From positions 5,557 to 69,556 of the forward strand of contig CAZCWQ010000002.1 in NCBI GenBank assembly GCA_964502365.1: 64,000 nt of DNA. Direction: 5' to 3'. Shown one piece after another: positions 14,800 through 17,855 of the stretch. Both the position numbers and the translations under genes were made by a program. Below the pieces are notes generated by a model that saw only the letters and a list, made by a program, of their open reading frames with translations, was not told the origin of the DNA and ran no database searches. How positions within the stretch are numbered: the stretch's first letter is position 1; each line of letters starts with the position of its first letter. Source of the stretch: an uncultured Desulfobacterales bacterium (lineage in GTDB: Bacteria > Desulfobacterota > Desulfobacteria > Desulfobacterales > C00003060).

Positions 14800-14920
14800 T
14801 CCCCGACCCTTTGGATTCCGGGTTACACACGGGCGGCCTTCCTTCTTCTCTTCACCTATGATCCGTTCAATGGTTTTCCAAGGCCGGAAAATTAGGGGGC
14901 TCTAAGAAGGAGGACCTGCG

Positions 14921-16672
14921 ATGCAAAGTGCCAGAATAGCCCTTGTTGCCTTTGTGGCCACAGCTATTACCGTTGGTGCGCTCTGGTTCACCAGCCATAG
15001 TGTGACCACGAAAAAGGCAACCCAAGAGGATGTGCTGACACAAGCAAATAGGGGCGGCTATCGGATTATTAGTGTGGATGAACTATGGGAGCGTCATAAA
15101 AAATATCCCCAAGAGCTTATCTTGGTAGATACACGTCAGGAATGGGAATATCGAGCCGGACATATCAAAGGTGCCTTGAACTTCCCACTGGAACCGACCT
15201 GGTTGTCGCGATGGCGAAAAAAAGACGCGCTTGAGAGATTCCTGGGGCCAGATAAGAATCGTGTTATCGTATTTTACTGAGCTGGACTGTCATGAGTCCG
15301 CAGCGACTCAGCGGCCCGGGTGGCCGTCAAACTCGGCTACAAAAATGTTTACCGTAACCCCAAGGGCTATCCGGAGTGGTACGCCAGGGGTCTACCAATA
15401 GAAAGCGCCCCAGCATTGCCTTCTGAAAAAACTTCCAAGCCCAAACCACCCGGGCCTCTGCATGGCTGGGCCATGATCTGGACACTTCTGGGCATCTTTG
15501 TGGGAGGTATGGCCCTCAATCTGACACCCTGCATCTATCCTCTGATCCCCATCACTGTCTCGTATTTTGGTGGCCGCAGCGCCCAGAGTCAGGCCGTGCT
15601 GGCTATCCACGGTGCCTGCTACATTGGCGGTCTGTCGTTTACCAATTCTGTGCTTGGCGTGGTGGCGGCCCTGACAGGAAGTCTTATGGGGGCCATGTTG
15701 CAGAACCCTGTAGTACTCGGACTGGTGTCTGCTGTTCTGCTCTTTCTTGCCACAAGCCTTTTTGGTCTCTGGGAATTACGACTGCCAACCAGCCTGACCC
15801 GGGCCGCCTCGAGATCTTTCACCGGTTACTTTGGGAGCCTATTTATGGGTTTGACCTTAGGGGCTGTGGCTGCCCCCTGTATCGGCCCTTTTGTCTTGGG
15901 TTTGCTCACCTGGGTAGCGAGTATGGGTAGCCCCTGGTTGGGCTTCTTGATATTTTTTAGCCTGAGCCTCGGCCTGGGCCTACCCCTCTTTTTCTTGGCC
16001 ATGTTTTCAGGACAACTGGAAAAACTTCCCCGTTCTGGAGAATGGATGCTGTGGGTTCGAAGACTAATGGGTTGGATCATGGTGGGAATGGCCGTCTATT
16101 TTATCCGACCGATTGTTCCCAAGACAGCCTGGATATTTCTTTTGGCAACCATCGCTTTGACTGCCGGTTTGCATCTCGGGTGGATTGACAGGACGGGAGC
16201 CGGCCTTCGAGGCTTCAAGTTGATCAAGGCAGGTGCTGCATTGGCGGGTCTGGCCATGGCCGCTCTCCTCATGGGTTCATGGGTAATGCGAGGCTCTGGG
16301 GTCGCCTGGCAGCCTTATTCTGACCAGCTATTGTCGGAGGCACGAAGATCAGAAAAGCCGGTCATCATTGATTTCTATGCTGACTGGTGTACACCGTGTC
16401 GCGAACTGGATGATGCCACCTTTCACGATCCCACGATTGTCGAACAAGCCAGGCGTGAGTTTATAATGATCAAGGTGGACCTCACCAGAAAAGGCAATCC
16501 CTTTCACGAAGGCCTTCTTGCGAAATATGGGGTCAAAGGCGTTCCCACAGTAGTTTTTTTGGACAGTGAGGGGGTTGAACGGCAAGATCTGCGCCTGGTG
16601 GATTTCATTCCCGCGGATCGGTTTCTGAACCGCATGGCTGAGGTTAGAAATCGCCTTGACTCTGGTCCCTAG
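14921..16672 (+). CDS. Candidate selenoprotein: membrane-anchored rhodanese domain fused to a DsbD/CcdA transmembrane domain and a C-terminal thioredoxin domain, read through in-frame UGA codons at 15278 and 15293
   Basis: ORFs 14921-15280 and 15320-16672 are in the same frame and are separated only by TGA-GCT-GGA-CTG-TCA-TGA. The joined sequence VIVFY-U-AGLS-U-VRSDSAARVAVKLGYKNVY restores a complete rhodanese fold. There is no SD before GTG 15320. Downstream are DsbD-type TM cysteines (LTPCIYP, AAPCIGPF) and a thioredoxin WCTPC motif. Confidence 0.6.
15281..15327 (+). promoter_or_regulatory. SECIS-like hairpins downstream of the two UGA codons in the rhodanese loop
   Basis: Hairpin 1 (15281-15304) pairs GCU-GGACU with AGUCC-(GC)-AGC around the loop GUCAUG. 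Hairpin 2 (15311-15327) pairs GCGGCC with GGCCGU around the loop CGGGU. The hairpin 2 loop lies about 24-28 nt after the second UGA, which is similar to the fdnG geometry. Confidence 0.4.
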
Positions 16673-16696
16673 AAAAATCTCAAAAAGGGGGCAAAC

Positions 16697-17014
16697 ATGC
16701 TGAAAGTCAGATTTTTTATGAATGAGCCCAATGGGAAGCCGTGAAAGCACTTCAAGAAGATGATGCCCAGGCTGGGCGAAAAATACGACATTGACATCGA
16801 GACAACAACTAAACCGAAAGCAGAATACACCACCGACGGGTATTTTGAACTGGACTTGCCGGTTGCGCCCGCAGTTATGGTGGGTGAAGAGATTGTGGCA
16901 GAAGGATCTGACGTTTCAGAAGAAAAACTCAAGTCGGTTATCTGCAAACATCTGGGTCTCCCACTGCCACGGACTCAAGAAAAAGGAATTATGCGTCGTC
17001 TATTGAAGACGTAA
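16697..17014 (+). CDS. Candidate small thioredoxin-fold selenoprotein (in-frame UGA at 16742)
   Basis: ATG 16697 is preceded by AAGGGGG. The translation is MLKVRFFMNEPNGKP-U-KHFKKMMPRLGEKYDIDIE...LPVAPAVMVGEEIVAEG...EEKLKSVICKHL. The beta-strand, redox site and helix layout resembles small thioredoxin/glutaredoxin-fold proteins. ORF 16760-17014 is in the same frame, and the hairpin GCCC-AGGCU-GGGC lies at 16765-16777. Confidence 0.4.
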
Positions 17015-17078
17015 ATTTCCGCAGTTGTATATCTGCTAATTGACGGGCTTGCTCCCCGTAACAGTAAGGACAGCGCGG

Positions 17079-17855
17079 ATGAGCTTGGTGACGATTAACT
17101 TTACTTCCTATCATGAATCGGTTTTCCGCGCACTCGATGACATCGGCACCAAGCACACACTCGCAAAACAGTCCGCAATCCTGATAAAACCCAACCTTAC
17201 CAATGCTTCTCGCCACCCGGTCACCACACCGGTCCAGTGCTGTGAAGCTGTGGTAGAATATGCACGTTACTGTTCAAAGGCGGATATTGTTATTGCCGAG
17301 GGCTCAGGCGATCCGTCCCTTGAAACCGACCAAATCTTCGATTTGCTTGGATATAGGAAAATGGCAACACGTCAAGGTGTTCTGCTTGTAGATTTGAACA
17401 CTGCACCACTTAAAAAACAGGAAGATAAGAAGTGCTCAGTTTTTCCGCAGATGCACCTCCCCGAAATCGCTTTCAATCATTTCATTATCTCCATTCCGGT
17501 ACTCAAAGCCCATTCTCTGGCCACCATAACCGGAACACTGAAAAACATGATGGGTTTTGCCCCACCCAAGCATTACTCAGGGCAACATGGCATCTGGAAG
17601 AAGGCAGCCTTTCATGAGAATATGCAGCAGGCAATTTGTGATCTGAACAGATACCGAAGCGCTGATCTGTCCTTGTTGGATGCCACGATTGGGCTCGCGG
17701 AACATCATCTGGGAGGGCGTCGTTGTAATCCGCCGGCGGGTAAAATAATTGCTGGATTCAATCCGTTGGAAGTGGATCGCGAGGCAGCAACTCTTCTCGG
17801 ACTCGACTGGAAAACAATTCCTCATCTCGCATCGGAAACAGAGAGAGCTTTTTGA
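17079..17855 (+). CDS. DUF362 domain protein
   Basis: The sequence ILIKPNL...VTTP...IAEGSG...ISIPVLKAHSLATITGTLKNMMG...DATIGL is the typical DUF362 pattern. ATG 17079 is in frame within ORF 17040-17855. Confidence 0.7.
   Translation: MSLVTINFTSYHESVFRALDDIGTKHTLAKQSAILIKPNLTNASRHPVTTPVQCCEAVVEYARYCSKADIVIAEGSGDPSLETDQIFDLLGYRKMATRQGVLLVDLNTAPLKKQEDKKCSVFPQMHLPEIAFNHFIISIPVLKAHSLATITGTLKNMMGFAPPKHYSGQHGIWKKAAFHENMQQAICDLNRYRSADLSLLDATIGLAEHHLGGRRCNPPAGKIIAGFNPLEVDREAATLLGLDWKTIPHLASETERAF

Follow-up and report, generated by a model that had tools for sequence, protein, structure and literature searches.

The locus analyzed here raises the question of whether a short open reading frame (ORF) directly downstream of tsoB is complete as standard annotation presents it, or is the greater part of a longer gene in which an in-frame UGA codon is read as selenocysteine (Sec). 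The window, a stretch of 64,000 nt from an uncultured Desulfobacterales bacterium, contains at 16760-17014 (+) an 84-aa ORF that mechanical ORF calling yields and that we do not regard as a separate gene. In the longer reading, supported by a profile match and a predicted fold described below, the tsoC coding sequence occupies 16697-17014 (+) and consists of 105 codons, with Sec as codon 16, and a stop codon at 17012-17014. The frame runs through MLKVRFFMNEPNGKP, reaches TGA at 16742-16744 (+) and continues without a shift into the 84-aa ORF 16760-17014. The residues around this codon, N9-E10-P11-N12-G13-K14-P15-U16, form the motif NEPNGKPU, in which U16 corresponds to the U of NEPxGxxU. Read directly from the sequence, a Shine-Dalgarno-like AAGGGGG at 16685-16691 (+), including GGGGG at 16687-16691, ends 5 nt upstream of ATG 16697, and 24 nt separate tsoC from the stop codon of tsoB (TAG, 16670-16672). 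The preliminary description had placed the ribosome-binding site, ATG 16697, TGA 16742, a downstream hairpin and the stop codon at these sites, and all of them were recovered base for base.

The region around TGA 16742-16744 is identical in two independent metagenome assemblies, X1 and X2, and an assembly from another study, X4, has 24-25 differences over 500 nt, none of them at 16742-16744. Since all three independently reproduce the TGA, an assembly error at this codon is excluded. The sequencing runs that match the tsoC locus are DNA runs only. In an estuary metagenome, X7, short contigs of other organisms stack on 16697-16777 alone, with a summed depth of up to 85 as compared with 0 in the flanks; because they stack nowhere else, the N-terminal codons and the candidate SECIS element are the most nucleotide-conserved part of tsoC among its environmental relatives.

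The family to which the product belongs was identified by profile searches. The joined 105-aa product matches the NCBIfam model NF045708, 'NEPxGxxU motif selenoprotein TsoC', with 152.4 bits (E 2.4e-45; curated cut-off 45 bits) over model positions 1-86 of 87, and a six-frame search of the genome with this model gave 145.1 bits with exactly one TGA inside the match. The 84-aa ORF matches positions 21-86 only. The preliminary description had not recognized the family, and it is this NCBIfam search that gives it a name. No significant family was found in Pfam for either the joined or the 84-aa protein (best E 0.06), and a sequence profile search of the PDB with TsoC returned nothing meaningful, the best match (E 0.097) being a ribosomal protein. 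In a large protein collection we found 1335 relatives of TsoC, many of which are entered as 'hypothetical protein' of 83-84 aa that start at an internal Met. In full-length relatives the UGA position is occupied by W, C or R; one 'W' entry that was inspected proved to be a TGA rendered as Trp by the gene caller. In the review PMC13188914, Tso stands for 'three selenoprotein operon', the proteins listed are TsoA (LULAxC), TsoB (UxxxxU, two Sec), TsoC (GxxU, one Sec), TsoX and TsoY, and the Tso proteins are credited to Haft & Tolstoy 2025 (mSystems 10:e0141724). We are thus highly confident that the product of 16697-17014 (+) is TsoC, a soluble selenoprotein of 105 residues with a thioredoxin fold, which belongs to the known NEPxGxxU family. 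Because this family was described in 2025 and is curated as NF045708, TsoC is not new; the present gene is a rediscovery and adds no categorically new biology.

Orthologs of tsoC were collected from contigs representing one genome per species, in which 391 stretches encode a TsoC relative. The best 80 of these 391 loci, mostly from Desulfobacterales, Desulfobacteraceae, Syntrophobacterales and Desulfobaccales MAGs, were compared and provided 76 distinct Sec-type tsoC genes from the genomes of other species. The Sec codon is TGA in 76/76 of them, a pattern that, judged from the aligned genes, is beyond chance. An ATG lies 15 codons upstream of the TGA throughout, with the single exception of L058, which has TCA there. 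Ahead of the TGA the protein sequence MLKVRFFxNEPNGKP is conserved, with codons that differ among the 76 genes (L2 is CTC, CTG or TTG; V4 is GTC, GTA or GTG; R5 is AGA, AGG or CGA; P15 is CCC, CCG or CCT). Codons 2-15 are therefore translated, as the amino acids are kept and third positions vary freely, and the sequence upstream of the ATG is unrelated between loci. Homologs that simply begin at the equivalent of Met 16760, which would have spoken against the longer frame, are thus not what the comparison reveals: the amino acids that the 15 upstream codons encode are conserved. Of 301 genomes sampled evenly across the phylum, 25, belonging to 18 of 201 genera, have tsoC, nearly always with exactly one TGA.

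Several loci depart from this common arrangement. Tandem or nearby duplicates of tsoC, each with its own TGA, occur in L008 (2376-2693 and 2746-3030), L044, G017, G059, G096 and G308; the second copy is the more divergent one, and in L008 it reads NEPNGKT-U and has an altered LDLPVAP motif. In L066 (166-1164) the TsoC frame continues without a stop codon into a hydrophobic membrane protein of ~230 residues, for a total of 332 aa, which is either a natural fusion or the result of a lost stop. At L057:4046-4048 the Sec codon is replaced by TAA and the C-terminus diverges too; a pseudogene or an error in sequencing is the probable explanation.

Homologs with Cys at the UGA position, which the preliminary description had named as a check on its proposal, do exist. 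The codon is TGC in L002-L004, L101, L102/L103 and L105, and TGT in L104. Cys is the only functional replacement seen at this codon, so that the two residues form a classical Cys/Sec pair. Together with the 76/76 TGA orthologs, the Cys forms support the earlier proposal that the in-frame UGA specifies Sec in a small thioredoxin-like protein. Both the hairpin and RLG have been lost from L101, L102/103 and L105, three of the five Cys lineages, where R-L-G is replaced (PKIK, PWLK and PKLD) and the 3' arm is missing. The hairpin is retained in the Cys forms L002 and L104 and in an Arg form, L106, consistent with recent conversion. The Arg form (L106:2546-2548, GCA_050122795.1, JASFIG010000003.1) is a TsoC ortholog that adjoins TsoB, has CGA in place of TGA and keeps the hairpin GCCCAGGTTGGGC; its protein is carried by seven contigs, and the copy may have been inactivated recently or may have taken on a different function.

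The hairpin downstream of the UGA is a candidate apical hairpin of a bacterial SECIS element, located at 16764-16778 (+) and read as U-GCCCA / GGC / UGGGC-G. It is the same hairpin that had been noticed at 16765-16777 from the single sequence, and it is conserved among the orthologs by synonymous constraint and by pairing. Its parts are GCCC (16765-16768), AGGCU (16769-16773) and GGGC (16774-16777), and the pairs A16769:U16773 and U16764:G16778 can extend the stem to 5-6 bp around a GGC loop. The stem begins 22-23 nt, and the GG lies 28-29 nt, 3' of the U of the UGA. The hairpin overlaps codons M23-P24-R25-L26-G27, and among the 76 Sec-type genes synonymous sites are frozen over the hairpin only. 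Thus, Pro24 is CCC in 75/76 genes as compared with CCC in 17-63 of 72-76 in other Pro columns, and Arg25 is AGG in 59/59 as compared with 10/68 for Arg5; Leu26 is YTG in 76/76, and Gly27 is GGC, GGT or GGA. In a 78-sequence alignment, 94.9% of cells pair, against 30-52% after displacement of the 3' arm by 1-3 columns. At the outer pair, G:C is changed to A:U in three sequences and to U:G in two, and the closing A:U to G:U in 15. The stem is short and covariation is modest, with double-sided changes at only one of the six hairpin pairs (5 cells), and part of the conservation could stem from the conserved amino acids. Lineages with M-I-P-V-L-G have the stem shifted by one base (UCCC/GGGA), and those with M-I-P-R-L-G-N have a longer stem (AUUCCC/GGGAAU).

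The folding energy of the hairpin in the single sequence is no better than that of shuffled sequences (-8.2 kcal/mol, z = -0.89), and the same is true for single-sequence folding of the whole 5' part of tsoC; for this reason thermodynamic stability was dropped as evidence for the hairpin and the comparative data were used instead. On the RNA-level constraint at synonymous sites, we regard 16764-16778 as a candidate SECIS element. Because the Cys forms replace R-L-G and lose the 3' arm, it seems to be the SECIS RNA, and not the protein, that holds PRLG invariant in Sec-type TsoC. An Rfam search gave no match within 14800-17200; to our knowledge Rfam holds no model for the bacterial SECIS. A second hairpin, CAUUUC...GAGAUG, folded by RNAfold at +6 to +20 in many orthologs, was set aside, as it is not coaxial with the conserved hairpin and conserved residues determine its sequence.

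The host genome possesses the machinery for Sec incorporation. A single tRNA-SeC with anticodon tca was found by aragorn, selA scores 616 bits, and two separate full-length selB-like genes exceed the cut-off, at C131:861-2753 (+) and C4:42125-44047 (-), with 364 and 321 bits. Two Sec-specific elongation factors in one genome are unusual, and the two SelB-like proteins might serve different SECIS types. The selD gene (C11:34318-35238, +; 366 bits) contains one in-frame TGA, so its predicted product is a Sec-containing selenophosphate synthetase. TGA is the commonest ordinary stop codon, ending 16/31 long ORFs in the 64-kb window; therefore it is not a general sense codon in this genome. Given the TGA in orthologs, the Cys forms and this machinery, UGA 16742 almost certainly encodes selenocysteine.

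The structure of TsoC was modeled by AlphaFold2 from a 53-sequence alignment (A3), with a pLDDT of 90.3 and a pTM of 0.79. The model consists of E2-10, H14-29, E32-40, two short helices, E59-62, E65-69 and H75-86, and its last 20 residues are disordered. The order b1-a1-b2-b3-b4-a3 is that of the thioredoxin fold, and the top Foldseek matches in the PDB are essentially all thioredoxins (prob 1.00, E ~1e-3, TM 0.5-0.58), which bears out the fold that had been guessed from the sequence layout. In the model, Sec16 lies in the first turn of helix 1, at its N-terminus, and the invariant L54-P55-x-A57-P58 precedes strand 3, in the place of the cis-Pro of thioredoxins. By eye, G13-K14-P15-U16 aligns with C-G-P-C, so that Sec16 takes the position of the second Cys. 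Gly13 is invariant in the 53 aligned sequences, and the CxxC dithiol of thioredoxins is absent (GKPU). With Sec in the second-Cys place and Gly in the first, the active site would therefore be a single-chalcogen (GxxU) redox center and not a dithiol. The earlier remark that no partner Cys lies nearby holds for the immediate surroundings of the UGA, but it overlooked Cys83, which is distant in sequence. Its codon, TGC at 16943-16945 (+), falls in the C-terminal helix; Cys is present here in 73/76 genes and is nearly invariant in alignment A3. Cys83 was considered as a resolving partner and rejected, since the usual geometry of the fold would put the C-terminal end of helix 3 opposite the active site.

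The gene upstream of tsoC is tsoB (14921-16672, +), which encodes a fusion of a rhodanese, a DsbD-type membrane domain and a thioredoxin and matches NF045694 (seleno_TsoB) with 1002.8 bits (cut-off 805). It has two in-frame UGA codons on the + strand, U120 at 15278-15280 and U125 at 15293-15295, within the translation VIVFYUAGLSUVRS. The RNA 3' of the first of them (15278-15345) forms two strong hairpins (-28.2 kcal/mol, z = -2.84, equalled by 0/200 shuffles). These hairpins are far more stable than that of tsoC and may act as SECIS elements for the pair of neighboring UGAs in tsoB. The hydropathy profile of TsoB has one N-terminal anchor and about 8 internal hydrophobic helices, two of which carry Cys residues of the DsbD type (TPC and APCIGP). 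TsoC has neither a signal peptide nor a hydrophobic segment, its maximum 19-residue hydropathy being 1.13.

A TsoB homolog is encoded directly upstream of TsoC in about 70/80 loci (the best 80 of 391), mostly with gaps of 10-90 nt, so that the two genes are almost always paired. TsoA is present in 36/62 loci that have room for it and absent in 26/62, and in a search with its model, NF045695, it adjoins TsoB in four of eight other genomes with TsoC. ArsR-type regulators were found in 35/62 loci with room, a GcvH-related protein (NF045810) directly downstream of tsoC in 13/76, and ArsM-type and HUIPC-type selenoproteins in a few loci. Among Cys-type loci, L002-L004 adjoin an ArsR-rhodanese fusion and a CCG/dicluster protein, and L104 adjoins a GcvH-related protein. 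In L102 (1348-3738), L103 and L105, Cys-type TsoC (NEPNGDSC or NEPNGKSC) is encoded between a DsrE-family protein and a membrane protein of 565 aa that ends in a TauE/SafE domain and takes the usual position of TsoB. The host genome (93.5% complete) gave no match to NF045695 (TsoA), which leaves the operon short of its three selenoproteins, and none to TsoR, TsoX or TsoY; the model for the GcvH-related protein gave sub-threshold matches only. Since TsoB and TsoC are kept here without TsoA, TsoR, TsoX and TsoY, the two proteins together form the core unit. The genes downstream in the window, for a DUF362 protein (17040-17855), an archaemetzincin-like protein and a TPR protein, were considered as parts of the system and discarded, as they adjoin TsoC in 0/80 loci; mgtE upstream is likewise not conserved with TsoC among the 80 loci.

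These comparisons decide between the ways in which the UGA might be explained. If the real gene were only the 84-aa ORF from ATG 16760, the upstream 15 codons and the TGA would be a leader ORF or untranslated; this would agree with standard ORF calling, which yields 16760-17014, and with the many homologs deposited as hypothetical proteins of 83-84 aa. It is nevertheless very improbable, as in 76 genes the amino acids of those 15 codons are kept through synonymous changes, next to an unconserved pre-ATG sequence, the Cys forms read straight through, and the shorter product covers only positions 21-86 of NF045708 and is without strand 1 and the beginning of helix 1, both parts of a fold predicted with confidence. 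Translation through the UGA without Sec, by near-cognate insertion of Trp or Cys or by local recoding, is what the W assigned by some gene callers would suggest. We consider it extremely improbable in a genome that combines a full Sec machinery with other selenoprotein genes (TsoB, and SelD with its TGA) and uses TGA as its commonest ordinary stop; moreover, Cys alone replaces Sec functionally, and a conserved hairpin with a GG loop lies at SECIS distance. The TGA might also have replaced a Cys codon, by nonsense mutation or through faulty assembly, and tsoC would then be a pseudogene. Cys homologs do exist, and the site is mutable, as TAA in L057 and CGA in L106 attest. However, TGA is found in 76/76 distinct orthologs from many genera and in almost every one of the 25 genomes with tsoC in the 301-genome sample, independent assemblies agree, and the remainder of tsoC is under clear purifying selection; the comparative data effectively refute this possibility, to which we assign a vanishing probability.

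In the reading we prefer, translation would start at ATG 16697 behind the Shine-Dalgarno sequence of tsoC itself, and SelB with tRNA-Sec would decode UGA 16742 as selenocysteine, recruited by the hairpin 16764-16778 inside the coding sequence. The position of such a recruiting hairpin within the coding sequence would account for the lack of synonymous change in the M-P-R-L-G codons. Being without a signal peptide or a hydrophobic segment, TsoC would be cytoplasmic. The anchor and the ~8 membrane helices with DsbD-type Cys suggest that the U-x4-U rhodanese and CxxC thioredoxin domains of TsoB are periplasmic. DsbD is the source of the analogy for this topology.

What TsoC does in the cell can be proposed with less assurance. 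By hydropathy topology and analogy with DsbD, TsoC could be the cytoplasmic partner of the TsoB membrane domain, acting through a transient selenenylsulfide and taking the place that thioredoxin has for DsbD; we put this forward tentatively, as possible rather than probable. A transient Se-S (or Se-X) bond would link Sec16 of TsoC with the cysteines of the TsoB membrane domain and would feed electrons or chalcogen or metalloid species across the membrane. It counts against a donor role that a lone Sec without a nearby thiol is, unaided, incapable of two-electron delivery, and the neighbors found elsewhere (ArsR-type, ArsM-type, GcvH-related, DsrE and TauE) hint at metalloid or sulfur chemistry instead. 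TsoC might accordingly be a carrier of S, Se or As, holding the species as a Se-S, Se-Se or Se-As adduct on Sec16 and exchanging it with the rhodanese domain and further sulfur-relay proteins, and not an electron donor. Such a carrier would suit the Cys-type loci, where L102, L103 and L105 adjoin the TauE-family membrane fusion and DsrE, L002-L004 the ArsR-rhodanese fusion and the CCG/dicluster protein, and L104 the GcvH-related protein; it would also suit the Sec-type loci with ArsR-type regulators (35/62), the GcvH-related protein (13/76) and ArsM-type selenoproteins, as well as a weak match to MTH895/ArsE (E 0.054). Yet neighbors of this kind are absent from the host genome, which has kept TsoB and TsoC, and a rhodanese on the periplasmic side with TsoC in the cytoplasm, as hydropathy suggests, would leave no direct hand-over. 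A carrier function is therefore conceivable in our view and falls short of being probable. We are more doubtful that TsoB and TsoC alone make up a self-sufficient selenium-based transmembrane redox relay. In such a relay the single-Sec GxxU protein TsoC would replace thioredoxin as donor to the DsbD-type domain, which would serve the periplasmic U-x4-U rhodanese, with selenium chemistry on both sides of the membrane. Both the TsoBC relay and the RNA-imposed PRLG may already have been stated by Haft & Tolstoy 2025.

Taken as a selenoprotein, tsoC is a genuine gene that standard annotation cuts to 84 aa, as it does in many public entries. The host locus represents a further example of the minimal TsoB-TsoC pair, in which TsoB and TsoC are the conserved core and the other Tso genes are missing, as they are in many genomes. 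In the protein, Sec would stand where a thioredoxin fold has the second Cys of CxxC, without a partner thiol, and the Cys-type relatives of TsoC are found among sulfur-relay genes.

TsoC can be compared with several known systems. The resemblance to MTH895/ArsE (TIGR00412) is a similar size and a weak local match of residues 51-82 to model positions 43-74, the half with the cis-Pro and b3-b4-a3; at 13.9 bits (E 0.054) against a cut-off of 62, and with the active-site half unaligned, TsoC is not a member of that family. Rdx-type selenoproteins (SelW / SelT / SelH) are characterized by a CxxU motif. Compared by motif only, they share with TsoC the small thioredoxin-like fold and a Sec that is second in the CxxC-equivalent motif at the b1-a1 junction, whereas the first position in TsoC is an invariant Gly instead of Cys and no sequence relationship was detected. 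Thioredoxin, the cytoplasmic donor of DsbD, shares with TsoC the predicted fold and the location of the redox residue, the N-terminus of helix 1; tsoC also adjoins the gene for a DsbD-type membrane protein. TsoC differs from it in having G-K-P-U, with one Sec and no vicinal thiol, in a TM of only about 0.5-0.58, and in matching neither the Pfam thioredoxin families nor any PDB chain by sequence. Finally, when set beside the TsoC family itself (NF045708), the locus differs in its reduced genomic context, which is without TsoA, TsoR, TsoX and TsoY, and the protein does not differ at all, having the same full-length HMM match, the NEPNGKPU motif, the UGA at the U of that motif and tsoB directly upstream.
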